From positions 256,001-320,000 of the forward strand of contig CBDFMQ010000002.1 in assembly GCA_965249725.1 (NCBI GenBank): a DNA stretch of 64,000 bases, written 5' to 3'. This DNA is from Longimicrobiales bacterium (GTDB lineage: Bacteria > Gemmatimonadota > Gemmatimonadetes > Longimicrobiales > Gaopeijiaceae). A program made the translations under genes and the position numbers. Positions 5,581 to 52,052 of this stretch are shown here, piece by piece. The notes beneath the pieces were generated by a model that was not told the origin of the DNA, searched no databases, and saw nothing but the letters and a program-made list of their open reading frames with translations. Position 1 is the stretch's first letter; each line of letters begins with the position of its first letter.

Positions 5581-5772
5581 ATCGAAATCGCCCACCAATG
5601 GTTCGGAAACGCCGTCACCGAGAGCGACTGGGACGACGCCTGGCTGAGCGAAGGCTTCGCCACGTACTTCACGCATCTGACCCGGGAGCACTACCAGGGA
5701 AGGGATGTCTTCGTGGCAGGCCTGGTCCGCGACAAGGACCGCATCGCTCAGATGGAGGAGCGGCTCAGCTGA
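5581..5772 (+). pseudogene. Remnant of an M1 (gluzincin) aminopeptidase catalytic core
   Basis: Frame reads [30 protein letters not shown]...RLS*; no start codon after the in-frame stop at 5530-5532; first His of HExxH absent. Confidence 0.8.
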
Positions 5773-7090: not shown

Positions 7091-7179
7091 CTCTGCCTCC
7101 GATAGTCGCTGAAGAGGGCGACCCTGCGTCTCCCCCCGTGATGCACCAGGAATCCTCACTCGATCGATCGATCCACGGC

Positions 7180-8526: not shown

Positions 8527-8769
8527 TGATGCCTCCCGGTTCTCGCCGATCGGGGCCGTTCTGTCCGGGCTTTCGGGGAGGAATCTCCGATGCGGCCCGG
8601 ATGACAGGTCAAGAAAGTAGGGGCTGGTGGCCCCACGGGATAGCGGAGCGGTCTTGGACTGCCGAGGCCGGATGGCGGAACGGTTCTGGACTGCCGACGC
8701 GGGATAGGATATGTGTTCTGCGAGCACGTTTCGTCTCCACCGGACCATCATTTCGGAGTGACCTTCCTG

Positions 8770-35825: not shown

Positions 35826-35861
35826 ATAAGAAGAAGCGCCCGGCCGCTATGGCCGGGCGCT
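35826..35861 (-). terminator. Intrinsic terminator after the multicopper-oxidase-like gene
   Basis: AGCGCCCGGCC-5 nt loop-GGCCGGGCGCT perfect 11-bp stem followed on the minus strand by TCTTCTTAT. Confidence 0.7.
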
Positions 35862-35897
35862 CATCACGCGTGGTCGTGCCGCTACGCCGGGACCGCG

Positions 35898-37706
35898 TCA
35901 GCCGGCGGGATCCACCTTCATCGAGATCGACATGCCGGATCCGACATGCTCCGGAATCTGGCAGTTGAGCATCCAATCCCCGGGGTTGGACATCTCGATC
36001 AACAGGTCGATGGTGGCGCCAACGGGCACGATGACCGTGTCGCGCCACACCATGTGGTTCATCCGTACCCCGTCCTGCTCCAACACCAGGAAGCGTTGGC
36101 CGTGAAGGTGCATGGGGTGGTTCATGGGATGGAACGACTTGGGGTTGTTGAACAGGCGGAGCTTCACGACGTCGCCCTCCTTGAAGCGCCAGCCTCTAGC
36201 CGGACCCAACTCACGGTCGGGCGACATGGTCGCCATGTCCGGCAGAATCCACGTCACCTCTTGGCCTGTCGCCAGCCAGTTCATCATCGGCATCGTCTCG
36301 TTCCACTCGAGCGGCGGCACGTAGAACGTGTCGATGGCCATCATCTGCTGGATCGGCGTGAGCAGTCCGCGGGCATTCAGCGTTAGTTCGAGCTCGTGGT
36401 CCACCTCTCGGTCGAAGTGGGGGCGCATCGCGTCGATATCCGCCCCGACCTCGGCCGGTTCCCTCAGCTCCGCAAACGCCGCCGAGTAGTCCGCTTCCGT
36501 GCCCTCGTCGGCAACCGTCACAGTGCCCAGGGTATCGACTTCCGCGTAGAACTGACCCAAGAAGTGATTGATCGCCTGGATCCGGCTCGTCATGGCCGCG
36601 TCACCGGCTTCATCGAACTTCACTTCGACTACGTACCGCTGACCGGGGGCGATCACCACGCTCCCGACCATGATCTCCTTCTCGAACCTGCTGAGGTCGC
36701 TCGCCACCAGCTTAATCGGGGCGCTGTCCCACGACACGTTGAACATGCGCGTGTTCGAGGCATTGGTGAGGTGGTACCGGACCACATCGCCCTTCTTTAC
36801 ATCCAGCTCATGGCTCGGCTTGCCATCCACAAGCATGACGTTGCCGAACCGCCCCATGAGGACGTGTGTGGGGGACTCGAAGCCCCACGGAATGGGGCCC
36901 AAGGCGTCCATGAGGATGTCGTCCAGTATCAGGACGACCTCATGGTTGACGGGGCTGTAGTAGTCCTCATCGGCGGACTCGACGATGATGTTGCCGTACA
37001 GGCCCAGATCCTGCGCGACCTCTTCGCGCTGGTGCGGGTGGTACCAGAACGTTCCCGCATCGGGAAATCGGACCTGATACTCGAACGTGTCCCCGGGTCG
37101 CACGGGTCTCTGGGTGAGGCCGGGCACACCGTCGTACTGGTTCTCTACGCGCACGCCGTGCCACCGGAGGGTGGTCGCGAATTCGATGTTGTTCGTGAAG
37201 TTGACCGTGATACTGGAGTGCTGCTTGACCTTGATGAGGGGCCCGGGATACTGACCGTTGAACGCATACATGATCAGGTCATGCCCACCGACCGTGCGGT
37301 GGACCAGCCCGGCCTCCATATCGAGCACGTCACCATCAGCCAACTCGATGACCTCGCGATACGTGGCCACGGGCAACATGTCGCGCTGCATGTCGTCGAG
37401 GTCCATGCCCGGCATGAAAGGTGCCGCCGTCGGGACATTACCCTCGAGGTAGGGCATCATGGACATGTCCATGCCCTCCATGGGAGGCATGCGCCAGACG
37501 TTGGGATCCATGCCCGTCATGTCGTGCTGCATTCCGGGCATGTTCATGGGCATCGGATCCTGCGCACGCACGGGCGCGGACAGAACGGTCAAGCCGACTG
37601 CTGCCCACACCATTCCGTAAAACGCGACACCACCGGTCACGTTGAGTCGTCGGTCCATCGGATACTTCAGCATCCACCTCTCCTCGAGATCGAACTCGTA
37701 GTCCAA
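35898..37706 (-). CDS. Three-domain multicopper oxidase homologue with degenerate trinuclear Cu site
   Basis: NGQYPGP, RWHG (for HWHG), WYHPH, HPMHLHG, NCQIPEH..SGM (for HCHxxxH..xGM); Met-rich N-terminus; exact start uncertain. Confidence 0.88.
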   Translation of the reverse strand: MDYEFDLEERWMLKYPMDRRLNVTGGVAFYGMVWAAVGLTVLSAPVRAQDPMPMNMPGMQHDMTGMDPNVWRMPPMEGMDMSMMPYLEGNVPTAAPFMPGMDLDDMQRDMLPVATYREVIELADGDVLDMEAGLVHRTVGGHDLIMYAFNGQYPGPLIKVKQHSSITVNFTNNIEFATTLRWHGVRVENQYDGVPGLTQRPVRPGDTFEYQVRFPDAGTFWYHPHQREEVAQDLGLYGNIIVESADEDYYSPVNHEVVLILDDILMDALGPIPWGFESPTHVLMGRFGNVMLVDGKPSHELDVKKGDVVRYHLTNASNTRMFNVSWDSAPIKLVASDLSRFEKEIMVGSVVIAPGQRYVVEVKFDEAGDAAMTSRIQAINHFLGQFYAEVDTLGTVTVADEGTEADYSAAFAELREPAEVGADIDAMRPHFDREVDHELELTLNARGLLTPIQQMMAIDTFYVPPLEWNETMPMMNWLATGQEVTWILPDMATMSPDRELGPARGWRFKEGDVVKLRLFNNPKSFHPMNHPMHLHGQRFLVLEQDGVRMNHMVWRDTVIVPVGATIDLLIEMSNPGDWMLNCQIPEHVGSGMSISMKVDPAG

Positions 37707-37776
37707 CTCACGTATCTGCCTCGCGAGTGCCGAGGTCTAAACCAATCAGAAGTTTAGCGACATGCGGGGGCGCTGC

Positions 37777-39150
37777 CTACGAGATGGGCCTCTGCACGCC
37801 GGCGGGCCCGTTGTCCCAATCCTGAGCGCTGGAGTTGTTCGGGACGCCCCAGTCGTCCCCATTCCAACCCTCGAACCCGTCCATCCTCATGAGCCAGAGC
37901 CCGGTGACGCCGTCACTGATTCCGATCAGGCCGTCGGCGTTCCGAACGTCGACTCCCCAGGCTCCCTGGTAGACTCCCCACGTGTAGCTGCTGTTCTCCG
38001 GACCCGGGCGCGTGTTGTGCGGGCCGGGATAGGTATCGTAGTAACCCACGGTATACGGATTCGTCGGGTCCATCATGTTGAACACGGACAGTCCCGTTTC
38101 GTAGCCCGCGACGAACACGTAGGGCCAGCGCATCTCATGGTTGTGAGCCAGGGTCTTCCAGTCCTCTTGCCATGCTCCGATCGACCGGCGGATCGTGGGG
38201 ACCTCCCCGTCGAGGCCCGGCTTCAGGTCGAAGATCCGCAAGGGTTGATACTGGAACTCGGTTTCGCCGACCGCGTAGCGACCGTCGGGTGTCGGGGTCA
38301 CCGTGTGTCCCCAATTGATTCCCGATACACCCGTCACGGTGGTGATCAGTTCAGGCTCTTCGGGTCGTGAGACATCGAACAGGTAGTATCCACCACCGCC
38401 GCCGCCGTAGAAGATGTCTCGCTGTGTGGCGGGGTCGAATCCGACGTAGAAGTCGTGATATCCCTCGGACAGGGCGCCGGGGGTCGGTGGTACGGGCACC
38501 CCACCCAGGTACCCCTGATCCTCTGCACCCGCGACGAACCGGCCCATGTCGAACATCTTCGCCAGCTTGCCATGTGTGGCGAAGAGAATCACTCGACCGT
38601 CCGAGTGCTTGTAGACGAAGATGTTGTGGAATCCGCCCCCGCCTTCGGGCCGGACCCGTCCGACCTCCGTGATCCGCTCAGGCAGATCCGTAACGTCGAC
38701 GACGATACCTCCGACGTCGGAGTTCGGGCCGCCCTGCCGAAAGGAGACCGACTGGATGAAGTAGTATCGGTCGCCGATCTTGAACTGCTTGCCATCCATC
38801 GCACCGCCCTGGTGCAGTTCCTGGTTCTCGACCCTCCAGCGGTGGATGACCTCGGCGTTGTCCGGGTCTTCGATGTTGATGACGTCGAAGCCCTTCTCGG
38901 TGGTCCGACGCGAAACGTAGACGTAGGGCCTCGACAACTCCTGCTCCACCTCGATGTCACTGACCGACAGGTAGGGACCGAGCGGGAGGTGAGACAGAAC
39001 GTGAACGTTGGTGCTGCCCCTCATTCCGGGGGGACGAGGCTGAGTCTCAGAAACGCCCTGCGCGGCCGCACCGGCCACCCCGAGGAGTGAGCTCATGAGG
39101 ACTGCGAGAATACTGCTCGAGGCCGAAGCCCGATTCACTTTCGTAATCAC
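37777..39150 (-). CDS. Secreted LVIVD-type beta-propeller protein, paralogue P3
   Basis: GTG 39150 after GGAGG; GGFHN, YHD, GHT, HNHE, DWDNGP..RPIS. Confidence 0.8.
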   Translation of the reverse strand: MITKVNRASASSSILAVLMSSLLGVAGAAAQGVSETQPRPPGMRGSTNVHVLSHLPLGPYLSVSDIEVEQELSRPYVYVSRRTTEKGFDVINIEDPDNAEVIHRWRVENQELHQGGAMDGKQFKIGDRYYFIQSVSFRQGGPNSDVGGIVVDVTDLPERITEVGRVRPEGGGGFHNIFVYKHSDGRVILFATHGKLAKMFDMGRFVAGAEDQGYLGGVPVPPTPGALSEGYHDFYVGFDPATQRDIFYGGGGGGYYLFDVSRPEEPELITTVTGVSGINWGHTVTPTPDGRYAVGETEFQYQPLRIFDLKPGLDGEVPTIRRSIGAWQEDWKTLAHNHEMRWPYVFVAGYETGLSVFNMMDPTNPYTVGYYDTYPGPHNTRPGPENSSYTWGVYQGAWGVDVRNADGLIGISDGVTGLWLMRMDGFEGWNGDDWGVPNNSSAQDWDNGPAGVQRPIS

Positions 39151-39328
39151 TGAAATCACCTCCGCAGACAGCGCACATCCAGGTTCGGAGACAACATGCC
39201 ACAGGCCGATTGACGCCCGCAAGCAAAGCACAGTCGATAAAGGGGTTCTGGCGGAACTCTGAGCCCCCAAGTATGATGAGCACCGGCTTAGACGGCCAGA
39301 CAAAGCAATCCGTTAGGGAGGTAGTCTG

Positions 39329-40708
39329 ATGAGTTGGAGAAATTTGTGCGCCGGGTTCGGGACCACGACGCTCGCGCTGGCGTTCACGGTTCTGTACGCC
39401 GCGCCCGCGAGTGCGCAGCATGCGCCGGGCGAGCAGGGTAGCAGCAACGTCCACGTTCTGTCTCATGTGCCCCTGGGTGGTGCCAGGCCCTTGGCGAATT
39501 CGGATGCGGCGGGGATCGACTCGTACGGTCGACGGACCGCCGATATCGAGATGGAAGAGGACATGGACCGTCCGTACGTCTACGTGTCCAGTCGTTTTGC
39601 CCCGAGCGGTTTCTCAATCATCAGTGTCGAAGATCCCGAGAACGCCGAGATCATCTACAAGTGGGTGGTCGACAACCCCATGCTCCATCAGGGCTCGGGA
39701 GCGCTGGACGGGAAGTACTTCAAGTCTGGTGGCCGCTACTACTACATCCAGTCCTTCCAGTTCAGGGCCGGCGGACCGGACTCGGATCTGGGCGCCATCA
39801 TCTTCGACGTGACCGGCCTGCCCGATCCGTCACAGGTGAGGGAAGTGGGTCGCATTCAGGGGCCGTCACAGCAGGGTGGCTTCCACAACATCTTCGCGTA
39901 CAAGCACTCCGACGGCCGCAACCTTCTCTTCGCCACGATTTCCGAGCCTGCGGCGCACGTCTACGACCTGGACATGTTCCTGGCCGGTGACCCCGACTTC
40001 GGGCTTATCGCCCGCGTACCGAATCCTGATCCCGCGCAAAGCAGGGGTTATCACGACTACTACGTCGGCTACCACCCGGAGAGCGGGCAGGATCGCTTCT
40101 ACGGAGCCGGGGGCGGCGGGTTCTACGTGTACGACATCACGGACCTCGGCAACCCGAACTTCCTGACGTCGGTCACCAATGTGTCCGGCATCCGGAGTGG
40201 ACACACGCTCACGCCGACGCCCGACGGGCGTTATGCCGTGGGTGAGACCGAGTACAGGACGGCTCCTCTGCGTATCTTCGACCTCCAGCCGGGTCTCGAT
40301 GGAGACGTGCCGACCATCACGCGACCCATCGGTGCCTGGACGGCCAACTGGAAGAACTTCTCGCACAACCACGAGGTCCGGTGGCCTTACGTGTTCGTGG
40401 CCGCTCTCGACGACGGGATGCAGGTCTTCAACATGATGGATCCGACCAATCCCTACACCGTCGGATTCTACGACACGTGGGACGGGCCGGACGGCACGCT
40501 CGCGAACCCCGCCACGACCTTCCAGGGCGCCTGGGGTGTCGACGTGCGCAACAACGACGGCCTCATCGTGGTGAGCAGCTTCATCACGGGCCTTTGGATC
40601 ATGAGGATGGACGGCTTCGAGGGTTGGAACGGTGAGGACTGGGGTATGCCGAACGTCTCCAGCGTACAGGACTGGGATAACGGCCCGGTGTCGCGACCCG
40701 TTTCATAA
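39329..40708 (+). CDS. Secreted LVIVD-type beta-propeller protein, paralogue P4
   Basis: GGGAGG RBS, signal peptide; same His motifs; ends RPVS. Confidence 0.82.
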   Translation: MSWRNLCAGFGTTTLALAFTVLYAAPASAQHAPGEQGSSNVHVLSHVPLGGARPLANSDAAGIDSYGRRTADIEMEEDMDRPYVYVSSRFAPSGFSIISVEDPENAEIIYKWVVDNPMLHQGSGALDGKYFKSGGRYYYIQSFQFRAGGPDSDLGAIIFDVTGLPDPSQVREVGRIQGPSQQGGFHNIFAYKHSDGRNLLFATISEPAAHVYDLDMFLAGDPDFGLIARVPNPDPAQSRGYHDYYVGYHPESGQDRFYGAGGGGFYVYDITDLGNPNFLTSVTNVSGIRSGHTLTPTPDGRYAVGETEYRTAPLRIFDLQPGLDGDVPTITRPIGAWTANWKNFSHNHEVRWPYVFVAALDDGMQVFNMMDPTNPYTVGFYDTWDGPDGTLANPATTFQGAWGVDVRNNDGLIVVSSFITGLWIMRMDGFEGWNGEDWGMPNVSSVQDWDNGPVSRPVS

Positions 40709-40723
40709 GACTTTTGTCAGGGT

Positions 40724-40764
40724 CGAGGGGGATGGGGGCGTCATGTGCGCCTTCATCCCCCTCG
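40724..40764. terminator. Strong intergenic hairpin between P4 and P5
   Basis: CGAGGGGGATG...CATCCCCCTCG perfect 11-bp outer stem extended by GGGGCG/CGCCTT. Confidence 0.55.
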
Positions 40765-40794
40765 GTTGTATGTATCCCGTCCGGAGGTAGCCCC

Positions 40795-42186
40795 ATGTCA
40801 TCGAGACCCTCAACCATCATCCGGGTGGCGATCGCATCAGCCGTTGCGTTCGCCGCTGCGTTCGCCTTGGGTGCGTCCTCCCACGTCGCGGGCCAGGACC
40901 AGTCCACGTATCCCCGCATGCCGGGAATGGCGGGAAGCCCGAACGTCGAAGTCCTCTCGCACCTCACGTTGGGCATGGGGACCGTGTCGGACATCGAGGT
41001 CGAGCAGGACGCCGACCGTCCTTACGCCTACGTGACCCGCCGGATGGGCGGCTTCGACGTGATCAGCCTGGAAGATCCGGAGAACGCCGAGGTCATCTAC
41101 GAGTGGCGGATTGAGAATCTGGCACTCCACCAAGGTGGGGGATCCGACACCAAGTACTTCAAGCACGACGGGCGTTACTACCTGGTGCAGGGAGTCAGCT
41201 TCCGGCAGGGCGGTCCCGACGCTGACGTCGCTGCCATCGTCTTCGACGTGACCGGACTCCCCGACGGATCGCAGGTGCGAGAGGTGGGGCGCGTGCGGCC
41301 CGAGGGTGGAGGGGGCTTCCACAATATCTTCATGTACAAGCACACCGACGGCCGTCCGATTCTCCTGGCCACCCACGCGGGCGCCAAGATGTTCGACATG
41401 GGGAGGTTCGTCGAGGGCGAGGAGGACCAGGGCTACCTCGGGACGATCGGCGTACCGCCGGATCCCGGGAATCTGTCGACCGGCTACCATGACCTCTACG
41501 CTGCGTTCGATCCGACCACGCAGCAGGACCGGTTCTATGGTGGAGGGGGTGGGGGATACTACGTCTACGACATCACCAGTCCGGAGAACCACGAACTCAT
41601 CACGACGGTCACGGGTGTGTCCGGATTCAATTGGGGTCACACCTTCACGCCTACCCCCGACGGTCGGTACGCCGTGGGCGAGGCCGAGTGGCAGTACCAG
41701 CCGCTTCGGATCTTCGATCTGAAGCCGGGACTGGATGCCGCGGCTAGGGGTGAGCTGCTGAACATCCGCCGTCCCATCGGCGCCTGGCATGCCGACTACA
41801 AGACGGTGGCCCACAACCACGAGGTCCGGTGGCCCTACGTGTTCGTTTCGGGCTACGTGACCGGCCTGTCGGTCTTCAACATGATGGACCCCACGAACCC
41901 CTATACCGTCGGATACTACGACACGTATCCGGGCCCGAACGACAAGGGCGGTGAGGAACTCGGCAGGGGTGGCAACTTCACCTGGGACGTCTACGAGGGT
42001 GCTTGGGGAATCGACGTGCGGAACGTCGACGGGCTGATCGTGATAAGCGATATGACCACAGGGTTCTGGATCTTCAAGATGGACGGCTTCGACGGATGGA
42101 ACGGGAACGATTGGGGGATGCCGAACAACTCGAGCGCCCAGGATTGGGACAACGGACCCGACGGCGTGCAGAGGCCGATATCCTGA
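40795..42186 (+). CDS. Secreted LVIVD-type beta-propeller protein, paralogue P5
   Basis: ATG 40795 after GGAGG; signal peptide; closest to P3; ends RPIS. Confidence 0.82.
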   Translation: MSSRPSTIIRVAIASAVAFAAAFALGASSHVAGQDQSTYPRMPGMAGSPNVEVLSHLTLGMGTVSDIEVEQDADRPYAYVTRRMGGFDVISLEDPENAEVIYEWRIENLALHQGGGSDTKYFKHDGRYYLVQGVSFRQGGPDADVAAIVFDVTGLPDGSQVREVGRVRPEGGGGFHNIFMYKHTDGRPILLATHAGAKMFDMGRFVEGEEDQGYLGTIGVPPDPGNLSTGYHDLYAAFDPTTQQDRFYGGGGGGYYVYDITSPENHELITTVTGVSGFNWGHTFTPTPDGRYAVGEAEWQYQPLRIFDLKPGLDAAARGELLNIRRPIGAWHADYKTVAHNHEVRWPYVFVSGYVTGLSVFNMMDPTNPYTVGYYDTYPGPNDKGGEELGRGGNFTWDVYEGAWGIDVRNVDGLIVISDMTTGFWIFKMDGFDGWNGNDWGMPNNSSAQDWDNGPDGVQRPIS

Positions 42187-44378
42187 GGATTCACGGTACG
42201 GCATTGCTGCTGGTCGTGCTGGTTGCTGGATGGTTGCAGCCAGCGGCCGGCCAAGAGTTGCCCGGGGCCGCCTCGGACGCAGTGCCTCAGAGCAACAGCG
42301 ACATCCGCGTGCCCGCTACGTTCGTCGAGGACCGCCCGAGCATAGACGGAGTGTTGGACGAGGCCTTCTGGCAAGCGATTGAACCCATCAGCGACTTCAA
42401 GCAGAGGCTGCCAAACGAGGGTGCCGAGCCCACGGAGCGCACCGAGCTCCGGATCGCCTACGACCGCCGTGCAATCTACTTCGGACTCACGGCATTCGAC
42501 TCGGAACCTGACAAGATCAAGCGCACCATTTTGAAGCGAGAGGGATTCATCCCCCAGGACGATCACTTTCATATAGGGCTGGACTCGTACAACGATGATC
42601 GCAACGCATACTTGTTCGAGCTGAATTCCTTCGGAACGCAGGGTGACGGCCTAGTCACGGACGAGAATGACATTGCCTGGAACTGGGAGGGCGTTTATGA
42701 GAGCCAGGGTCAGGTCAACGACGAAGGCTGGGTGTTGGAGGTGGCTATCCCCTTCACCACGATTCGCTTCGATCCGGCGGAGAGCATCGAGATGGGGGTG
42801 GCGATTGAGCGGGGGATCGTACGCAAGAACGAGATTCTGCTGTGGCCACTCATCGATCTCGACTATAGGCGCTTCTATGGTCTCGTTCACTCGTCCCAGT
42901 ACGCGACGATCGTGGGGCTCGAGAACTTGCGTCCCGGCCGGAACCTGGAGATCAAACCCTATGCGCTCGCCGGCGCCCAGAAGGTCAACCTCGGTGTAGA
43001 AGGGGCCGAAAATGACACCGACGGAGACTTCGGTCTCGATGTGAAGTACGGCATCACTTCCAACCTCACGCTCGATCTCACGTACAACACCGATTTTGCC
43101 CAAGTGGAGGCGGACAACGTCCAGATCAACCTCACTCGATTCAGTCTGCGTTTCCCTGAAAAGCGTGAGTTCTTTCTCGAGAGATCGGGCCTGTTCGAGT
43201 TCGGATCGCGGGGCACAGAGACATTCTTCAGCCGTCGTATTGGAATCACGAACGACATTCTGGCTGGGGCACGTGTCACGGGGCAGGCCGGTCCGATCTC
43301 GGTTGGTATGCTCGATCTCCAGACCAGGAACGAGATCGACGCTCCGGGAACCAACTTCGGCGTCGCTCGAATCCGGGGCGACGTGTTGCCGGGATTGACC
43401 CTCGGCACGCTTTTCACGAATCGTGAAGGCGACGGCGAACACAACCGGGCCGTTGGTGGCGACATGTCGGTCCGGTTCTGGAGTGGGAGCACCCTCGACG
43501 CCTGGGCGACTAACGTGTGGTCGTCGGAGGGCGACGGCCGCTCGTCTGCGGGGGCCGTGGATCTGACCATCGACACGGACCTCTATCTGCTCGAGGTAGG
43601 CTATCTGAACGTCGGGGACGACTTCAACCCGGGAATCGGGTTCGTGCGCCGCCGCGACATGATCCGTTACAGCGGGAAGGCGGGCGTTTCGCCCCGCATC
43701 GGCCGGGGCGATCGGTTCGTTCGTCAGGTGTCCCTGTCGGTGGGTGGCAACTACATCGAGGGCCAGAATCATGAGAAGCAGTCGACCGAGCTGGGCGCAG
43801 ACTTCTCGTTCTCGCTCGAGAATACGGACCGCGGCGGGGGCAGTGTGAAGCGCAGCTTCGAGCGCCTCGACGTGCCGTTCCAGATCCGTGACGACGTGAC
43901 GATCGCTGCGGGCGACTACAACTTCACGACGGGCAGCTTCAACTACCGGCCCAACTGGAGCCGGCCCCTGGCCGGTTCACTCGCCCTCACCTATGGCGGG
44001 TTCTTCGGGGGCACGAGGACGACGTTCGGTGGTGGCCCGACCGTGAAGTTCTCGAAGCACCTCGAGGTGCGCCTCACGGCCCATCACAACGTCATCTCCC
44101 TTCCGGTCGAGAATGGTGATTTCTCGGCCACCATTCTGGGAGCCAACATCCTGACGGCCGTCAGTCGCAAGATCTTCGCCGAGGCGTTGATCCAGTACGA
44201 CAACGACTCGAAGAAGCTCCAGGCCAACTTGAGGATCAACTGGATTCACACGCCGGGGTCGGATCTGTTCGTGGTCTTCAACACCGGGTATTTCTTCGAA
44301 GACGGGATCAACTTCAGGGAATCGGCGTTGGATCAGAGGACGGGGTTGGTGAAGCTGACCTACTTGTGGTCGCTGTGA
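42183..44378 (+). CDS. CBM9-like + DUF5916 outer-membrane beta-barrel protein
   Basis: PSIDGVLDEAFW (CBM9/DOMON-like), NTDFAQVEAD..INLTRF..FPEKREFF, terminal VKLTYLWSL beta-signal; start uncertain (CTG 42183 or TTG 42204). Confidence 0.8.
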   Translation: MRIHGTALLLVVLVAGWLQPAAGQELPGAASDAVPQSNSDIRVPATFVEDRPSIDGVLDEAFWQAIEPISDFKQRLPNEGAEPTERTELRIAYDRRAIYFGLTAFDSEPDKIKRTILKREGFIPQDDHFHIGLDSYNDDRNAYLFELNSFGTQGDGLVTDENDIAWNWEGVYESQGQVNDEGWVLEVAIPFTTIRFDPAESIEMGVAIERGIVRKNEILLWPLIDLDYRRFYGLVHSSQYATIVGLENLRPGRNLEIKPYALAGAQKVNLGVEGAENDTDGDFGLDVKYGITSNLTLDLTYNTDFAQVEADNVQINLTRFSLRFPEKREFFLERSGLFEFGSRGTETFFSRRIGITNDILAGARVTGQAGPISVGMLDLQTRNEIDAPGTNFGVARIRGDVLPGLTLGTLFTNREGDGEHNRAVGGDMSVRFWSGSTLDAWATNVWSSEGDGRSSAGAVDLTIDTDLYLLEVGYLNVGDDFNPGIGFVRRRDMIRYSGKAGVSPRIGRGDRFVRQVSLSVGGNYIEGQNHEKQSTELGADFSFSLENTDRGGGSVKRSFERLDVPFQIRDDVTIAAGDYNFTTGSFNYRPNWSRPLAGSLALTYGGFFGGTRTTFGGGPTVKFSKHLEVRLTAHHNVISLPVENGDFSATILGANILTAVSRKIFAEALIQYDNDSKKLQANLRINWIHTPGSDLFVVFNTGYFFEDGINFRESALDQRTGLVKLTYLWSL

Positions 44379-44507
44379 GATCCGTCGACCGCCGCGATCC
44401 GACTGTCTGACGCGAAGATCTCGATCTTAATATGCTTGCGCCGTCGGTTCGGCCGGCCTAGATAGGAATGTGGGTTCCCGCCGGGTGACTTCCACCGCTC
44501 GGCCCCA

Positions 44508-47500
44508 GTGCTATACCCGGTGGTATGCCCGATGCGCGGTCGCCTCCTCAACCGCATTTCCCCTCGCTTCCTCGCGCCGCTCCTGGTGCTGATCGTGCTG
44601 TCTTGCACGGACGGCGTCCGGCCGAACACCTCGGAACCCTCCTACTTTCGCGCCCCACTCCTCCTCGCGCCCCGAATCTCGTCCCTGTCGTCTGCCTTTA
44701 AGGCCGAGCCCGTCAATCGAATCCGGCTGACGGTACGTCACGCTCTGACGGCAGTCGTTCTGGCCACACAGGATCTCCCCGTCGATCCAAATGCCGCCCA
44801 GTGGCAGGTTGAGTTCGAGGTCGAGCTGCCGGGAGGCGCACCCGTTCCGGTAGTTGCCGAAGCCGAGTTGCTGGATGGTGACATCGTGCAGTGGAGCGGC
44901 CGCCTGGAGTTGGAGGTGGCAGCCCAGGCTACCCCGGTGGTCCACGAGCTCGATGTCTTCAGAGGCCCGCTCGACAACTTCTGGGCCGTCCTGGTTGCCA
45001 TTCAAGGAGGCCCGCTGTCCATGCTCGAGGGGGGTACGCTGCCACTGAATGCTACGGTGCAGGTGGATGGCAACCCGAACGCTCGGCCGCAGGTCTTCTG
45101 GCTGTCCCTCGACCCCACGGTCGCAACCGTCGGCGAAGCGAGCGGCGTCGTGACAGGGGTGAGCCCCGGCATCGCCCGGATCGTTGCGATCGCTGGCCGA
45201 GCGTCCGATCAGGTCGAGATCACCGTCCGGTCCAGGCCCGCTTCGATACAGATCCTCCCTGAGTCGATCGCTTTTGATGCGTTCGGACTTCAGGCTGCAT
45301 TCACCGCCGACGTTCTCGATACGCGCGGCGACGTGCTGGCCGGGGCGCAAGTCGCCTGGTCGGCGGAGGACCCGGCGGTGGCGGCGCACGAGGCCGGGGG
45401 ATCATTCATGGCCGTCGGCAACGGCGTGACGACCGCGATCGCGACGTCGGTTGATGATCCGTCGATCATGGCGTCGGTGCCCATCACGGTTCGGCAGATC
45501 GTCGCCGGCCTCGAGCTGTTCCCCACCTCACTGAGGCTGGTCTCCTTGGGGGAGACAGCGGCCCTGACCGCCTCGGCCGTCGACCCCCAGGGACACGACG
45601 TCGGTGACGCCGTGCTCGGGTGGTCCTCGGCCGACCCGAATGTTGCAGCCGTGGACGCGAACGGAGTCGTGACGGCCGTCGGCACGGGCATGACGACGAT
45701 CACAGGGACCGCCTCGGCGCCCGAGCTCGGTGTGGCGGAGGGGCGCGCAGCCCTACAGCAGCCGGTGGAAGCATCGATTACGGTGGAAGTGACCCAGGCG
45801 GCTTTCTCGGTGGTGGTCACGCCGAGCGAGGTCGAGCTGGGGGCGGTTGGGGAGACCACGCAGTTCGAGGCTCAGATCGTCGATGCCCTGGGGGTGCCGA
45901 TCACCGACGTCATGCCGGTCTGGAGCTCGACCCATCCGGAGATCGCATCCATCGATGTCGATGGCCTGGCCACGGCCCATGCTGTCGGCACGACCGCGAT
46001 ACAGGCCGCGGTCGACGGGATTGTAGGCCAAGCCACGCTGACCGTCGTCGCAGCGGATTTGATCGTGAGCCTGTTCGAGGTTCTCCCCGGCGGAGCACCA
46101 GGGAGCGTGATCACCGCCGCGGATGTCTTCTTCCGCGTGGAGGTGTTCAACCTCGGCCCCGGGGCCGCGGCGGCGACCGGTATCACCATCGACGTCCGCG
46201 ACAGCGGAACGGACGCGTTGGTCGGCCAGCTCACCTTCCCACAGCCTGCCCTCGACCCCGGCACTGGCTTCCTGCTCGAGGAGTTCGGTGCGGGCCAGTG
46301 GGCCGCCCTGACCCTGCCGGCCGGAGTGTACTTCGAGGCACGAACCGATCCGCACGACGGGGTGGTGGAAGGGGACGAGGCCAACAACAGCATCGTTTCG
46401 GCCGACTTCACCGTCCTGCTGACGGCGATCAACAAGTGGATCAATCCGGCGGGTGGCAACTGGAGCAACGCGTCCAACTGGAGCCTCGGGCACGTGCCCG
46501 ACCTCACCGATGGCGAGGTGGTCATCGATCTGGACGGCACCTACACGGTCACGATGGACGTGAACTCCAACGTGAAGGTCCTGACGGTGGGTGGAGGCAC
46601 GGGCGTGCAGACCCTCGCAGCCGACGGGCGGACGTTGACGCTCGACGGGGCGAGCACGGTCGCTTCGACGGGGGAGCTCAGACTGACGAACACCACGGTC
46701 GACGGTACCGGCTCTCTGAACAACGGCGGGCTCCTCACCGTGTTGCCCGGCACGGACAACATCGACGTGCCGTTCACGCAGTCGGGCTCGGTCGTTCTGA
46801 ACGGGAACAACGGAAATGCCATCCTCACGGTGGCAAACGGGTTCACCAACGCCGGGACCATCGACCTGACCGGAACGAGCTGGGCCGGGGTGCTGAACGT
46901 GTCGGCCGGCACACTGACGAACGGGGCCGGCGCGACGATCCAGGCGACGGGTGGCTCGACGAACCAGATCACGGCCACGGTCGATAACCAGGGGACGATC
47001 CTGGTCCAAGACGGGCTCCAGTTCTTCAACAGCGGACGCACGCTCACGTCCACGTCGGGGACGTTCGACGTGGCCGCCGGCCAGCAGGTGGAGATCAACG
47101 GAGGCACCACGGAGTTCGGAACCGGCACAGGACTCGTCGGGACGGGCACGATCAATTGGACAGGTACCACGGTGACGCTGGTCAGCGATGTCACGGTGGC
47201 GAGCGGGGCACCGACGTGGGCGTTCGGTGGCACGAACGCCGTGACGATCAACGGAGCCGGCACGCTGATCAATCAGTCGTCGCTGATGCTGCAGAACGAG
47301 ACCGTGGACGTGGCGATCGACAACCAGGCGACGGGCATGATCACGGTGCTGCCGGGGCTCACCTGGTTCAACGATGCGGTGACGCAGGCGGGCACCATCG
47401 TGCTGAACGGCAACAACGGACACGCGAACCTCTATGTACCCAACAACAGCTTCACGAAGTCGGGGACCATCGAGCTCACGGGCACGAGCTGGGCCGGGAT

Positions 47501-49928
47501 CTTGCAGGTGTCGAGCGGCGTGCTCGGCACGCTGACGAACGCGAGCGGCGCGACGATCCGCTCGACGGCTGGCTCGAACAACCAGATCACCGGGCACATC
47601 GACAACCAGGGAACGATCCACGTCCAGAAGGGACTCCTACTGAATGCCGGAGATACGGACACGACGACCGGGACGTTGAACGTCGAGAGCGGCCACACTC
47701 TCCAGTGGAACTCGGGCACGATTACGCTGGGGTCGGCGACTGGGCTCGTGGGCACGGGGACCCTCCTATGGACAGGGACGACCATGACGTTGGGCAGCGA
47801 CGTGACGGTCGAGAGCGGAGAGCCTGCGTGGACGTTTGCCCCCACGGTGCCGGTCACCATCAACGGCCCCGGCACGCTGATCAACCAGGCGTCGTTGACC
47901 TTCCAGGACGAGATCGTGAACGCTGACCTCGACAACGAGGCGACTGGCACGATCACCGTGCTGCCCGGCACCACCCAGCTGAACGGTGCCGTGACCCAGG
48001 CGGGCACGATCGTCCTGAACGGCAACAACGGGGACGCCAACCTCACGGTGGCAAACGGGTTCACGAACGCGGGCACGATCGATCTGACGGGAACGAGCTG
48101 GGCCGGGTTGCTGAACGTGTCGGCCGGCACGCTGACGAACGGGGCCGGCGCGACGATCCAGGCCACGGGCGGCTCGACCAACCAGATCACGGCCACAGTC
48201 GACAACCAGGGCACGATCCTGGTCCAAGACGGTCTCAAGTTCTTTAACACCGGACGCACGCTCACCTCGACATCGGGGACGTTCAACGTGGCGGCCGGCC
48301 AGCAGGTGGAGATCAACGGAGGCGTGACCACGCTCGGGACAGCGACCGGGCTGGTCGGGACGGGCACGATCAACTGGACGGGGACGACGGTCACGTTGGC
48401 GAGTGACGTCACGGTCGCCGCCGGGGCACCGACGTGGGCGTTCGGCACGACTAACGCGGTGACGATCAACGGTGCCGGGACGCTGATCAATCAGGCCTCA
48501 CTGACATTCGAGAACGAGATCGTCGATGCAGACCTCGACAACCAGGCCACGGGGACGATCACCGTGCAACCCGGTACCACCCAGTTCAACGGGGCGGTGA
48601 CCCAGGCGGGCACCATCGTCCTGAACGGCAACAACGGTGACGCCAACCTCACGGTGGCCAACGGCTTCACGAACGCGGGGACCATCGACCTGACAGGGTC
48701 GAGCTGGGCCGGCGTGCTGAACGTGTCGGCCGGCACGCTGACGACGCTGGGGATGAACGTGATCAGTGCGACCGGCGGTGCGACGGGCCAAATCACCATG
48801 AACGTGATCAGTGCGACCGGCGGTGCGACGGGCCAAATCACCGCGACGATCGACAACCAGGGGACGTTGCTGTCTCAGGACGGGCTCAAGATCAACAACA
48901 GTGGTCGGACGCTCACCTCGACGACAGGAACGCTGAGCGTGTCGGCCGGCCAGCCACTGGAGATCAGCGGTGGCACGACGACGTTGGGTAGTAGCACGGG
49001 GCTGGTGGGCACCGGCACCCTCGACTGGAGGGACACGCCGACCATAACGTTGTCGAGCGATGTGACGGTGGCGAGCGGCGCTCCAACCTGGACCTTCGGT
49101 GGCGGAACCGCTGCAACGATCAACGGACCCGGCACCCTGATCAATCAGGTCTCGCTGACGATGATCAACGAGATCGTGAACGCCCCAATCAACAACCAAG
49201 CGACGGGCACGATCACAGTGCTACCCCCGGGCACGACTCAGTTCAATGGATCGGTGACCCAGGCAGGTGCGATCACTCTGAACGGCAACAACGGGCCTGC
49301 TCAGCTCACGGTGGCGAACGGCTTCACGAACACCGGGACGATCGAGCTCACCGGCACGAGCTGGGCCGGCTTCTTGACCGTATCGGCCGGCACGCTGACC
49401 AATTCGAGCGTCATTCAAGCGACGGGCGGCGCCACGAACCAGATCACCGCGACCCTCAACAATCAGGGCACGATCATCGTGAATGACCAGCTCGATCTGG
49501 TAGGCACAGTCACGCATGCTTCCGGGGCGCTACTTCAGGGCACCAGCACCCTCGACATTACGGGTGCCAGCCTCACGTTCAACGGTGATGTCAACCCCGG
49601 CGCGCCCGGCACAGCCGGCACTCTCACGATCACCGGTGCTCTCGTACTTCAGGGCACGAGCAACGTGAACATCGATCTGCTGGTAGCGGGCCAGGACCGC
49701 TTGGTCGTCACGGGAGCCGGGACCCTCGCCGGGACCCTCAACGTGAGCCGGGAAGGTGCCTACGTGCCCGGTATCGGCTCGTTCATCGAGATCATGAGCT
49801 ACTCGTCTCAGTCAGCGAGCTTCGGGGGTACCACTGGTGTCGGTGTGGGGTTCAACGGGGACCGACAGTTTTCCATCAATACCGGGGACGCGAGCAAGTT
49901 CCGGCTCGAAGTCACCGCGTTCCCCTAG
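44508..49928 (+). CDS. Giant surface lipoprotein: Ig-like (Big_2) domains, CARDB-like domain, ~5 T/G/N-rich beta-helix repeats
   Basis: VLSC lipobox; WxSxxPxVAxV..G Big_2 signatures; DPxxxVxExDExNN; repeated LNGNNG..TVANGFTNAGTIxLTGTSWAG. Confidence 0.8.
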   Translation: MLYPVVCPMRGRLLNRISPRFLAPLLVLIVLSCTDGVRPNTSEPSYFRAPLLLAPRISSLSSAFKAEPVNRIRLTVRHALTAVVLATQDLPVDPNAAQWQVEFEVELPGGAPVPVVAEAELLDGDIVQWSGRLELEVAAQATPVVHELDVFRGPLDNFWAVLVAIQGGPLSMLEGGTLPLNATVQVDGNPNARPQVFWLSLDPTVATVGEASGVVTGVSPGIARIVAIAGRASDQVEITVRSRPASIQILPESIAFDAFGLQAAFTADVLDTRGDVLAGAQVAWSAEDPAVAAHEAGGSFMAVGNGVTTAIATSVDDPSIMASVPITVRQIVAGLELFPTSLRLVSLGETAALTASAVDPQGHDVGDAVLGWSSADPNVAAVDANGVVTAVGTGMTTITGTASAPELGVAEGRAALQQPVEASITVEVTQAAFSVVVTPSEVELGAVGETTQFEAQIVDALGVPITDVMPVWSSTHPEIASIDVDGLATAHAVGTTAIQAAVDGIVGQATLTVVAADLIVSLFEVLPGGAPGSVITAADVFFRVEVFNLGPGAAAATGITIDVRDSGTDALVGQLTFPQPALDPGTGFLLEEFGAGQWAALTLPAGVYFEARTDPHDGVVEGDEANNSIVSADFTVLLTAINKWINPAGGNWSNASNWSLGHVPDLTDGEVVIDLDGTYTVTMDVNSNVKVLTVGGGTGVQTLAADGRTLTLDGASTVASTGELRLTNTTVDGTGSLNNGGLLTVLPGTDNIDVPFTQSGSVVLNGNNGNAILTVANGFTNAGTIDLTGTSWAGVLNVSAGTLTNGAGATIQATGGSTNQITATVDNQGTILVQDGLQFFNSGRTLTSTSGTFDVAAGQQVEINGGTTEFGTGTGLVGTGTINWTGTTVTLVSDVTVASGAPTWAFGGTNAVTINGAGTLINQSSLMLQNETVDVAIDNQATGMITVLPGLTWFNDAVTQAGTIVLNGNNGHANLYVPNNSFTKSGTIELTGTSWAGILQVSSGVLGTLTNASGATIRSTAGSNNQITGHIDNQGTIHVQKGLLLNAGDTDTTTGTLNVESGHTLQWNSGTITLGSATGLVGTGTLLWTGTTMTLGSDVTVESGEPAWTFAPTVPVTINGPGTLINQASLTFQDEIVNADLDNEATGTITVLPGTTQLNGAVTQAGTIVLNGNNGDANLTVANGFTNAGTIDLTGTSWAGLLNVSAGTLTNGAGATIQATGGSTNQITATVDNQGTILVQDGLKFFNTGRTLTSTSGTFNVAAGQQVEINGGVTTLGTATGLVGTGTINWTGTTVTLASDVTVAAGAPTWAFGTTNAVTINGAGTLINQASLTFENEIVDADLDNQATGTITVQPGTTQFNGAVTQAGTIVLNGNNGDANLTVANGFTNAGTIDLTGSSWAGVLNVSAGTLTTLGMNVISATGGATGQITMNVISATGGATGQITATIDNQGTLLSQDGLKINNSGRTLTSTTGTLSVSAGQPLEISGGTTTLGSSTGLVGTGTLDWRDTPTITLSSDVTVASGAPTWTFGGGTAATINGPGTLINQVSLTMINEIVNAPINNQATGTITVLPPGTTQFNGSVTQAGAITLNGNNGPAQLTVANGFTNTGTIELTGTSWAGFLTVSAGTLTNSSVIQATGGATNQITATLNNQGTIIVNDQLDLVGTVTHASGALLQGTSTLDITGASLTFNGDVNPGAPGTAGTLTITGALVLQGTSNVNIDLLVAGQDRLVVTGAGTLAGTLNVSREGAYVPGIGSFIEIMSYSSQSASFGGTTGVGVGFNGDRQFSINTGDASKFRLEVTAFP
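48753..48842 (+). repeat. Perfect 45-bp in-frame tandem duplication (MNVISATGGATGQIT x2)
   Basis: Two identical copies at 48753-48797 and 48798-48842. Confidence 0.95.
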
Positions 49929-49952
49929 GAATCCCACCGGTGGGATTCCTAG
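49925..49952. terminator. Perfect 28-bp palindrome between convergent genes
   Basis: CTAGGAATCCCACC|GGTGGGATTCCTAG, no spacer. Confidence 0.6.
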
Positions 49953-49961
49953 CATTCAGCC

Positions 49962-51335
49962 CTAGAAGACCGTCGCCCGCTTCGACCCTTCGGGTCCGTT
50001 GTCCCAATCCTGGACCGTGGAAATGTTGGGCATTCCCCAGTCATTCCCGTTCCAGCCCTGGAAGCCGTCCAGGCGGAAGGCCCAGAAGCCGGTCGTGAAG
50101 TCGGAAACGATGATCAGGCCGTCTTCGTTGCGGACATCGAGACCCATAGCGCCGTTGGCCACCTCGGTGAAGAACGAAGCTCCGCCGCCGTAGGCGATGT
50201 TGTCGGGCTGATCGTAGGTGTCGAAGCTGGCCACCGTGTAAGGGTTCTCCGGGTCCATCATGTTGAAGACCTGAAGCCCCTCCATGTAGTTCGCGACGAA
50301 CACGTAGGGCCAGCGCATCTCGAAGTTGTGGGCGTGCTTCTTCCAGTCCGCCGTCCACGCTCCGATGGGTCGCGTGATCATGTTGGTGGCGTCCGTCGCC
50401 TCCATGTCGAACAAGCGGATGGGGCTGTAGCGGAGATGGCCTTCGGAGATGCCGTACTTGTGGTCCGGCGTCACCGCGAACGTGTGATCGCGGGTCACCC
50501 CTGGAACACACGCAACCGATTTGATCAGCTGGGGCTCTTCTGGGCGGGTCACGTCGAAGACGTAGGTCCCTACCGGCTGGGAAGCGGCGTAGGCGAGGTC
50601 CCGGCCGGTCTCCGGATCGAAGGCGATGTAGAAGTCGTGGTAGGTATGTGACATCCCGGCGCCCGGACAGGGATTGGTCGGCACAGGCATCTGAGCGATG
50701 AGCCCGTTGTCCGGGGCCCCGTCCAGAAACATCTGCATGTCGTAGATGTTGGCGTAGGGCCCGTTCACCGTTGCGAAGAGGAGCACACGGCCGTCGGAGT
50801 GCTTATAGGCGAAGAGATTGTGAAACCCGCCCGGGCTGAGCGGGTCTCGGATACGTCCGACCTCGCGTACCGCCTCGGGATCAGGAAGTCCCGTTACGTC
50901 GAAGACCACCGCGCCGAGGTCGGCGTCCGGCCCACCCTGCTGGAATTGGAGACCCTGAGCGTAGTAGTAGCGATCGTTCAGCTTGAAGTACTTACCGTCG
51001 GTGCCGCCCGAGCCGCGGTGCAGCTCGGCGTTCTCGATGCGCCACCGGTAGATGATCTGCGAGCTCTCCGGCTTGGACACGTCGATGATGTCGACACCGC
51101 CCAGGAGCCAACGGGACACATACACGTAGGGTCGAGAGATCTCCTGCTCGATCTCGATGTCGCCCACGCTGAAGGCCTGTCCGAGCTGGATGTGTGACAC
51201 CAACTCGACGTTGGCGGTGCCCTGTTCGATGATCCCGTCCGCCGGCGGTGACTGTGCGTCGGCGGCTAGAGGACTCCAGGCCAAGACGGCCAGAGACAGC
51301 ACGACCCGGCGGGGGAGGGCACTAAGCAACTGCAT
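49962..51335 (-). CDS. Secreted LVIVD-type beta-propeller protein, paralogue P6 (divergent)
   Basis: ATG 51335 gives a signal peptide; GGFHN, YHD, DHT, HAHNFE, DWDNGP. Confidence 0.8.
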   Translation of the reverse strand: MQLLSALPRRVVLSLAVLAWSPLAADAQSPPADGIIEQGTANVELVSHIQLGQAFSVGDIEIEQEISRPYVYVSRWLLGGVDIIDVSKPESSQIIYRWRIENAELHRGSGGTDGKYFKLNDRYYYAQGLQFQQGGPDADLGAVVFDVTGLPDPEAVREVGRIRDPLSPGGFHNLFAYKHSDGRVLLFATVNGPYANIYDMQMFLDGAPDNGLIAQMPVPTNPCPGAGMSHTYHDFYIAFDPETGRDLAYAASQPVGTYVFDVTRPEEPQLIKSVACVPGVTRDHTFAVTPDHKYGISEGHLRYSPIRLFDMEATDATNMITRPIGAWTADWKKHAHNFEMRWPYVFVANYMEGLQVFNMMDPENPYTVASFDTYDQPDNIAYGGGASFFTEVANGAMGLDVRNEDGLIIVSDFTTGFWAFRLDGFQGWNGNDWGMPNISTVQDWDNGPEGSKRATVF

Positions 51336-51349
51336 GGGGTCGGCCGGTT

Positions 51350-51961
51350 TCAGCAGTTCTCTACTTCGAACGGGCCGTGCCCCGACGCGGAGTGCATCAG
51401 GCCGCTCCGGGAGATCCCCTGCATGAGGATCGGTCCCTTCCAAGCATTCCCGGGCCTATCGACATTCGCGGGGTCCCACGAACCCGGCTGCTCGGCCGTG
51501 ACGAACATGATGAACTTGTTGAAGTCCACCTGTCCCTTGAGCTCACGGTTTTCGTCGAGGACGCCCATTCTGACGATCGGGCTCAGGTTGGGCGGCGTTA
51601 CCCAAACGGTGTATTCCACGTTCGGGGGTCCCCGGAGTCCTTCGACGGCGAGGTGAACGTCGTAGACGTACCGGCCATCCACCGAAACCGCGATGCCGAA
51701 CGGCGACTGAGCGAAGGTCTTCGTGACGTATCCGACCGCACCCGGTGCGCTACCCGTGGCTGCCATGCGGATGTTGTAGTAGTCGGCGAGGGGCGCAACG
51801 GCCGGCGCAGCAGCGCAGATACCAACGACCGGATCGGGCACGCTCGCCGAGGCTGGTTCGGCCTGCCACAACGGCGAGGCGAACGCAAGCGTGACAGCGA
51901 CCAACATCATCGACACCCGACCCACGGGGGCGGATAGCTCGCTCAGCAGCCCAAAACGCAT
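51350..51961 (-). CDS. Hypothetical exported protein with C-terminal MHxxxGH..C motif
   Basis: ATG 51961 after GGAGG; signal-like helix; SPFGIAVSxDG motif; stop 14 bp upstream of the P6 start. Confidence 0.7.
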   Translation of the reverse strand: MRFGLLSELSAPVGRVSMMLVAVTLAFASPLWQAEPASASVPDPVVGICAAAPAVAPLADYYNIRMAATGSAPGAVGYVTKTFAQSPFGIAVSVDGRYVYDVHLAVEGLRGPPNVEYTVWVTPPNLSPIVRMGVLDENRELKGQVDFNKFIMFVTAEQPGSWDPANVDRPGNAWKGPILMQGISRSGLMHSASGHGPFEVENC

Positions 51962-52052
51962 CTTGAATCCTCCACAGAAAGCCACGTTCAACCTCGAAAA
52001 TTACGCAGGGCGCCTCAGGGCTGCAAGACAATGGGCCGGGTGCCCGGAGTCC

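Follow-up and report, generated by a model that had tools for sequence, protein, structure and literature searches.

In nitrous-oxide reductase (NosZ), the propeller holds the multi-copper CuZ centre and has a cupredoxin domain carrying CuA as its partner. Sb-PTE, the haloalkylphosphorus hydrolase/phosphotriesterase of Sphingobium sp. TCM1 (PDB entries 5hrm and 5ioj), is said in its 2016 structure paper to carry a binuclear Mn centre in the central channel. Among homologues of the multicopper oxidases (MCOs), FtsP has lost its copper sites altogether. The DNA considered here is a stretch of 64,000 nucleotides (the window, G000:C3:256001-320000) from a 4.16-Mb genome of 64% G+C that belongs to a Longimicrobiales bacterium. 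The window contains a cassette composed of a gene for a seven-bladed propeller (P6), a gene for a small and apparently exported protein (SMALL) and a gene for an MCO-family protein that retains a type-1 copper site. Its relatives carry the names Gemmatimonadota, Longimicrobiales or Palauibacterales.

No description of the propeller family or of the three-gene combination was found in the literature, and for MCO homologues without a trinuclear site only FtsP/SufI surfaced. The superfamilies to which the components belong are known; the combination of the three genes, together with a branch of oxidases that keeps only the type-1 site, is undescribed.

Conservation of the propeller-SMALL-oxidase unit

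The propeller, SMALL and the oxidase homologue form a co-conserved three-gene unit across Gemmatimonadota. At the same-family loci, found in 29 genomes, the propeller and SMALL genes were adjacent in 29/29 cases and the oxidase gene was contiguous in 28/29; the 29th locus has the propeller and SMALL, with no MCO gene inside its 1.5-kb flank. A further 20 distant loci were hand-picked from the best-scoring matches of families f2, f4, f5 and f7, and 19 of these had all three genes within 13.5 kb, the exception being a locus (L070) with no propeller within 6 kb. No fourth recurring gene family was found near the trio among 116 flanking open reading frames (ORFs). A sequence-only reading of the window had proposed a periplasmic copper system whose genes should travel together in other genomes. 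The synteny survey bears this out for the propeller, SMALL and the oxidase only; a DUF5916 barrel and a giant lipoprotein lie outside the conserved unit.

In the window, the cassette consists of SMALL, P6 and the MCO gene, and is split by three further propeller genes (P3, P4 and P5), the DUF5916 protein and the giant lipoprotein, none of which is a conserved member of the trio. The features of the locus are as follows.

35898-37706, minus strand: MCO-family gene (ORF translation, Pfam)
35834-35862, minus strand: terminator-like GC-rich hairpin directly 3' of the MCO stop codon (pattern scan, consensus match only)
37777-39303, minus strand: P3 propeller, sharing the strand of the MCO gene and lying immediately 5' of it (ORF translation)
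39329-40708, plus strand: P4 propeller, divergent from P3 (ORF translation)
40714-42186, plus strand: P5 propeller, downstream of P4 (ORF translation)
42003-44378, plus strand: CBM9-like and DUF5916 protein (Pfam); the ORF as listed over-extends into P5
44508-49928, plus strand: giant Big_2/CARDB protein of 1806 residues with a lipobox-like VLSC at its N terminus (Pfam)
49962-51443, minus strand: P6 propeller, with a likely start ATG at 51335 (translation)
51350-51991, minus strand: SMALL, ending MHSASGHGPFEVENC (translation); the database form has 203 residues and starts at 51961

The order and strands of these genes, as determined from ORF translations and Pfam matches, are those that the sequence-only reading had given. 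Inspection of the junction sequence places the likely ATG of P6 14 nt past the SMALL stop codon, a distance at which SMALL and P6 are probably co-transcribed. For window positions 49900-52050, the data sets listed as containing the sequence were six of DNA, from three studies, and none of RNA. The hairpin at 35834..35862, the stem of which has 12 pairs (10 of them G-C), probably ends the P3-MCO transcription unit, judging by its sequence. The true start of P3 is probably internal, near 39150, and P5 likely starts near 40795. Export of the products, which had also been claimed, was judged by eye from the N termini, and to that extent is upheld: hydrophobic segments were seen, together with an RR motif in the MCO-family protein and the VLSC motif in the giant protein.

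The closest orthologous locus (L018, 82-88% identity) has the order SMALL-P6-(P4, opposite strand)-MCO. Its P6 orthologue is 86% identical and directly follows SMALL, and its P4 orthologue is 88% identical and lies between P6 and the MCO gene. P3 has no counterpart there, and the place of P5 holds only a propeller-like remnant of 94 residues. In L018 and the two other loci that rank with it as the closest named ones (L019 and L020), the oxidase gene is within 4 kb of SMALL, and the DUF5916 and giant proteins are absent from all three. A DUF5916 gene was found near 1 of the 20 distant modules, and membership of the unit could be maintained neither for the barrel nor for the giant lipoprotein. 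Within the genome, the CBM9/DUF5916 family comprises 23 called ORFs (12 strong and 11 weak phmmer matches), and the 1806-residue protein has no full-length paralogue. At one distant locus (L069, G040:C3:179500-193000), PadR and MacB/FtsX genes stand between SMALL and the oxidase gene, which shows that the cassette is interrupted in other places too.

The distribution of the genes across the phylum is nested. The SMALL profile matches 157 of 301 phylum genomes, a tally that takes in one unpublished genome (G157), which enters no other result, and the P6 query matches 102 of 301. When the two lists were compared by eye, all 101 propeller-positive genomes besides the present one were also SMALL-positive. 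In the present genome, a propeller gene is next to each of the four SMALL-homologous places (one of which lies inside a fused oxidase) and next to two of the three oxidase copies; the third copy is one gene off, behind SMALL. The corresponding background value is 45 of 3319 non-propeller ORFs (1.4%), and the linkage of propeller, SMALL and oxidase in this genome exceeds chance.

SMALL and the oxidase can also be joined in one polypeptide. A single 716-residue SMALL-MCO frame at G000:C3:137600-139750 (L008:7601-9751) carries the R/NCQ replacements described below and is missing the Met/His/Cys tail of SMALL. Of the long frames sampled from other genomes, six of six were SMALL-MCO fusions, and all of these have canonical oxidase ligands.

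The propeller family and its histidine ring

P3-P6 are 4 of 45 full-length paralogues, within one genome, of an unnamed family of seven-bladed propellers. The 45 copies are 51-93% identical to P4, occupy ∼20 loci and include tandem arrays of 4-10 copies (arrays or copies lie, for example, at C1:682933-699064, C3:91267-97163, C3:162006-168343 and C3:2436619-2442631). At roughly 1.35 kb each, the 45 genes make up ∼1.5% of the genome. That they are not confined to the window locus is a caveat on the linkage described above. The family as a whole has thousands of members, most of them unnamed; a few are called LVIVD repeat-containing by NCBI, and one has a PF08309 match. In searches with P3-P6, no Pfam family was matched at E ≤ 0.01, PF08309 and SBP56 included, and TIGR04312 covered only their C-terminal part at 36-42 bits, below its cut-off of 100.

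The AlphaFold model of P4 (predicted local distance difference test score, pLDDT, of 88.5) contains 28 strands, corresponding to seven four-strand blades. An alignment of 95 family members, 45 from this genome and 50 from others, revealed a set of nearly invariant histidines. His-46, His-120, His-186, His-193, His-242, His-292 and His-346 are kept in 93-95 of the 95 rows and His-348 in 88; for His-120, His-186, His-242, His-292 and His-346 the range is 94-95. The seven positions 46, 120, 186, 242, 292, 346 and 348 are all histidine in 86 of the rows. At these ring positions P6 has H H H H H H F, the phenylalanine being at 348. In the P4 model, His-120, His-186, His-242, His-292, His-346 and His-348 are located at or just before the first (innermost) strand of blades 2-6. 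In propellers generally, the start of the innermost strands marks the mouth of the central channel, and the topology of the model suggests that these six histidines ring that mouth, where a metal site would be located. The earlier description of the propellers as histidine-lined is consistent with this result, the ring residues being near-invariant and placed by the model where a central-channel metal site would lie. Relatives at 33-41% identity are without several of the ring histidines.

Structural comparison of the P4 model by Foldseek and VIA-align returned generic seven-bladed/WD40 propellers (Z ∼31), which provided no functional information, and VIA-align re-ranking did not separate Sb-PTE, NosZ and the others. 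Sb-PTE was the Foldseek match of highest identity (14%, at ranks 5 and 7). A profile search of the PDB yielded no NosZ chain at E ≤ 1, any homology to NosZ being at most remote, and no SBP56/methanethiol oxidase chain, and the match to Sb-PTE that it did yield consists of four short blade-repeat segments that are out of register.

A FastTree phylogeny of the 95 members was used to place the window copies. A twin of P4, with 93% identity, lies at G000:C3:95787-97163, and P4 clusters with this copy (C3:95784) and with its L018 orthologue (support 100). P3 and P5 fall together with the copies at C3:91-94 kb and C3:935 kb (support 99), apart from the module propellers found in other genomes. A separate branch holds P6 with its L018 orthologue, and its position next to the f4/f5 module propellers has only weak support (52). 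No module member is present in a clade of 11 copies; eight of these are in two four-gene arrays, one of which adjoins SusC/SusD genes. When the label "next to SMALL or oxidase" was mapped onto the tree, 12 changes were needed, compared with 31.7 in shuffles. The clades of P3, P4 and P5 are for the most part not linked to oxidases, and the proposed role of these three copies as parts of the system was not substantiated; the copy that adjoins SMALL is P6.

Further copies were noted in this and other genomes. Two paralogues, probably those that the sequence-only reading had called P1 and P2, are found at window positions 5765-9468 (G000:C3:261765-265468), and the second of these lies in a 762-residue open frame, which may reflect an N-terminal extension or an over-called start. 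A copy at G000:C3:1914187-1915425 has an internal TAA stop codon and is probably a pseudogene. Mobile-element genes (a phage-type integrase, a Mutator-family transposase, a reverse transcriptase and an rve integrase) stand beside some propellers, at G000:C3:76647-83324, C3:198388-199629 and C3:2308273-2309565, and mobile elements may have helped to spread the family. In other phylum genomes, a first look gave 103 propeller candidates in G127 and 34 in G043, values that are not copy numbers but suggest that the expansion is even larger in another genome of the phylum.

SusC-like TonB receptors adjoin propellers at four loci, namely L005 (G000:C2:203576-210848), L017 (G000:C3:2436619-2448190), L002 and L007. 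SusD is also present in L005 and L017, and a small OMP_b-brl protein in L002, L005 and L017; no carbohydrate-active enzymes were found in the scanned flanks of the SusC-linked propeller loci. Elsewhere in the scanned loci, a PALP enzyme (L005:1976-3006, G000:C2) and an LtrA protein (L015:10608-11781, G000:C3) are each represented by two adjacent ORFs that match the two halves of the Pfam model; these may be frameshifted genes or an artefact of a crude ORF caller.

The oxidase homologue and SMALL

The MCO-family protein of the window matches the Pfam families Cu-oxidase_3, Cu-oxidase and Cu-oxidase_2 (E = 1.9e-34, 2.7e-12 and 9.6e-24, respectively), and its N-terminal part has an RR-containing signal region and a Met-rich segment. 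The best NCBIfam matches are CueO (NF008205; 129.6 bits, cut-off 525) and CopA (TIGR01480; 111.6 bits, cut-off 478.95), both falling far below the cut-offs. Alignment with the laccases 4f7k and 6vow showed that HWHG has become RWHG and HCH has become NCQ, with WYHPH and HPMHLHG kept. All four ligands of the type-1 copper (His, Cys, His and Met) remain intact in HPMHLHG and the following C-x4-H-x4-M. By contrast, 5 of the 8 trinuclear-cluster histidines are left, with Arg, Asn and Gln at the other three positions; on the model of CueO, each of the three coppers of the cluster is taken here to have lost a single ligand. The sequence-only reading had described an oxidase with an intact type-1 site and an incomplete oxygen-reducing site, and this alignment, like that of the paralogues, agrees with it. 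The same R/NCQ replacements occur in all three oxidase copies of this genome.

Other genomes present a different picture. In an alignment of 18 full-length module oxidases, eight have R/NCQ and ten are canonical; none of the 18 deviates at a type-1 ligand or at any of the other five cluster histidines. In module oxidases of other genomes, 45 of 51 are canonical at the visible site or sites and 6 have R or NCQ, the two replacements always co-occurring where both sites are visible. A quick IQ-TREE analysis separated eight altered from 16 canonical oxidases by one branch (Shimodaira-Hasegawa-like approximate likelihood ratio test, SH-aLRT, of 100), with long terminal branches in the altered group. 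Restriction of the R/N/Q form to one well-supported group with long internal branches argues that it is under selection and not decaying. The type-1-only oxidase is an old, maintained subfamily and a minority form. It thus marks one sub-branch and is not, as had been supposed from the window, a property of the system. That the oxidase might be a decaying pseudogene was considered and dropped, the same three replacements being found across deep branches of one supported clade.

Immediately after the oxidase gene on contig C1 (G000:C1:701468-704499, L004:7469-10499), there is an 814-residue FG-GAP and LVIVD protein on the opposite strand. The same stretch has a small c-type cytochrome (Cytochrome_CBB3) near the oxidase, and it is possible that this cytochrome is an electron acceptor for the type-1-only protein.

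SMALL comprises a signal-like N terminus, a β-sandwich of the immunoglobulin (Ig)/superoxide dismutase (SOD) type and a flexible C-terminal tail (SRSGLMHSASGHGPFEVENC). The predicted structure is an Ig-like sandwich with a pLDDT of 73, falling to <50 in the tail. In the alignment of SMALL sequences, the tail conforms to G-x-S-R-S-G-L-M-H-x4-H-G-P-F-x-E-x-C, in which His-195 is invariant and Met-189, His-190 and Cys-203 are near-invariant. By fold, SMALL comes closest to Cu,Zn-SOD-like chains and to domain 2 of the copper chaperone for SOD (CCS), at Z = 7.3-9.1 (8.0-9.1 for the Cu,Zn-SOD-like chains), compared with ∼7-8 for FN3 domains. Foldseek returned nothing at E ≤ 0.001, its weak matches including ApaG, YEATS and the copper-binding P19/FetP/HftA.

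The window SMALL has no Pfam match, CopC/PcoC included, and no CopC/PcoC match was found among 23 family members at E ≤ 1. RskA_C (PF10099) is matched weakly by 11 of the 23 (best E = 2.2e-4) and not by the window protein, and PF26349 (YoqH-like) is found on some distant relatives. A protein-cluster look-up gave only unnamed Gemmatimonadota clusters and the weak YoqH and RskA_C leads.

Proposed function and comparison with known systems

The SMALL, P6 and MCO genes can be regarded as this genome's copy of a Gemmatimonadota-wide cassette, and the function tentatively favoured for it, on a balance of evidence that falls somewhat short of even, is that of one periplasmic redox system. In such a system the propeller would be the catalytic part and would hold a multi-metal centre on its six channel-mouth histidines; by comparison with NosZ, copper is the first guess for the metal. 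The blue-copper electron partner of the propeller would be the MCO-family protein, acting through its type-1 copper, and SMALL, docking on the oxidase, would serve as an adaptor or metallochaperone. Where the partner is a complete oxidase, as in most lineages, it could pass electrons on to oxygen. In the R/N/Q branch, the retained type-1 copper would make the protein an electron carrier, or one with an altered copper site, and not an oxygen reductase.

Several observations weigh against this reading. Convergence of the histidines was read only from the strand topology of the model, and the only solved relative in the PDB profile search is Sb-PTE (E = 1e-4), a hydrolase and not an oxidoreductase. 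No oxidase lies close to the majority of the 45 propellers, and several arrays adjoin SusC/SusD, peptidase or amidohydrolase genes, a context that suits hydrolases acting in nutrient uptake. SMALL-MCO pairs occur with no propeller nearby at L019, L020 and L070, and ∼55 SMALL-positive genomes have no propeller match to the P6 query; pairs that lack a propeller imply that SMALL and the oxidase have a function of their own. All three oxidase copies of the present genome are without a full oxygen-reducing site, such that a relay to oxygen cannot run via them in the usual way. Finally, the genomes surveyed are kin, and the locus counts therefore overstate independence.

One alternative, rather unlikely although closest in standing to the favoured system, assigns the pair to metal supply: SMALL (as chaperone) and the MCO protein would be copper-handling proteins that load or protect the metal centres of the propellers with no exchange of electrons, SMALL contributing a docking sandwich and a flexible Met/His/Cys tail and the Met-rich oxidase setting the Cu(I)/Cu(II) state. 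This would fit the nesting of the propeller within SMALL presence (101/101, compared with 156/300 overall) and the sharing, by 45 propellers, of three oxidases and four SMALL-homologous places (three genes and the fused domain). The Met-rich region is as in cuprous oxidases, and SMALL is weakly like Cu,Zn-SOD and CCS domain 2, with a disordered tail bearing near-invariant M, H, H and C; the domain-plus-tail layout of CCS resembles that of SMALL. Supply alone leaves unexplained, however, the invariant type-1 site in a branch that has lost oxygen-site ligands. The fused SMALL-MCO forms are, moreover, without the tail, profile coverage ending near position 178, and the SMALL fold matches are within the noise of Ig-like sandwiches. 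Redox partnership between oxidase and propeller is preferred to copper loading on the grounds that the electron-entry site has been kept by selection despite the altered oxygen site, and the margin between the two is small.

It is less probable again that the propellers are Sb-PTE-like binuclear-metal hydrolases used in nutrient scavenging, with the oxidase acting on their products or merely sharing their regulation. Sb-PTE is the sole PDB sequence match and the top Foldseek match by identity, four propeller loci have SusC-type receptors (accompanied by SusD at two and by a small OMP barrel at three), and other propeller copies repeatedly have amidohydrolase and peptidase genes as neighbours. 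The sequence match is nevertheless limited to out-of-register blade repeats, the conserved first-shell candidates are six histidines with few carboxylates, and the three-gene synteny and phyletic nesting exceed what shared regulation would require. The SusCD-linked clade of 11 copies has no module member, so that the SusCD context may belong to a diverged subfamily.

Copper resistance alone, with SMALL and the oxidase detoxifying copper as a pair of the PcoC/PcoA or CueO kind and the propellers acting as periplasmic copper sinks, would account for the Met-rich oxidase with CueO and CopA as its best NCBIfam matches, for a small exported partner with Met, His and Cys, and for a DUF305 gene near one distant locus. 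It is nonetheless very improbable given the CueO/CopA scores far under the cut-offs, the lack of a CopC/PcoC match for SMALL and the three genome copies without the full oxygen-reducing site that cuprous oxidase activity needs. No efflux or regulator genes recur in the scanned flanks, and an enzyme-like invariant site in 45 paralogues would be odd for a sink. The least credible arrangement, and one scarcely to be expected, is a five-part system of propellers, oxidase and SMALL in which the DUF5916 barrel imports substrate across the outer membrane. Three propeller loci of the present genome (that of the window, L002 and L008) do have DUF5916 genes nearby, but the absence of the barrel and the giant protein from L018-L020, the single DUF5916 gene among the 20 distant modules and the 23 DUF5916 ORFs of the genome, mostly located elsewhere, argue otherwise.

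The redox proposal can be extended to the statement that the His-ring propellers form a new class of multi-copper enzymes in the periplasm, present in at least 45 copies per genome in some Gemmatimonadota. Each would oxidise or reduce a small substrate of its own, with electrons exchanged with a dedicated MCO partner held by the small adaptor, and in the R/N/Q branch this partner would be a natural blue-copper electron carrier of three domains that has ceased to reduce oxygen. This wider statement is doubtful, and clearly more so than that made for the cassette itself. Were the propellers indeed copper enzymes, they would be a second or third His-ringed multi-copper propeller beside nitrous-oxide reductase, and a large set of periplasmic reactions as yet unknown would be defined. 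The Gemmatimonadota are abundant in soils and sediments and biochemically little studied, and the propeller family that is tied phylum-wide to the oxidase and SMALL has neither a Pfam family nor a name, nor a paper that could be found. The type-1-only branch is, in addition, a natural experiment on what a multicopper oxidase becomes after oxygen reduction has been given up.

Sb-PTE, among described systems, is likewise a seven-bladed propeller with LVIVD-like blades, but it is a hydrolase, its metal is bound by His and Glu, and it has no partner oxidase, whereas the family in the window has six ring histidines and a dedicated MCO protein and SMALL. CueO and PcoA/CopA, the latter with PcoC/CopC, share with the cassette a three-domain MCO, a Met-rich segment, a probable twin-arginine translocation (Tat) signal and a small exported partner. 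In contrast to these, the window oxidase scores far below the family cut-offs and has three of eight trinuclear histidines replaced, and SMALL is not CopC-like and is often fused to the oxidase. FtsP/SufI, which is among the PDB and NCBIfam matches of the window oxidase, is an MCO homologue that gave up oxygen reduction, but the window oxidase, unlike FtsP, keeps a complete type-1 site and five cluster histidines, all invariant.

CCS, with its domain 2 and C-terminal tail, is similar to SMALL in combining a SOD-like/Ig-like sandwich with a flexible Cys-containing tail. The Z scores of SMALL, however, hardly exceed those for FN3 domains, which are unrelated, the two proteins are not related in sequence, and the Pfam hint is RskA_C; the CCS tail motif is CXC, which differs from the MH-x4-H-x7-C of SMALL. 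The same logic as in the proposed system is found in NosZ, where a His-lined seven-bladed propeller is combined with a cupredoxin-type electron-transfer module. No Nos accessory family (nosD, nosF, nosY or nosL) was found among 133 and 116 flanking ORFs. NosZ is one chain with seven ring histidines and CuA; the window system has separate proteins, six ring histidines and a three-domain MCO.

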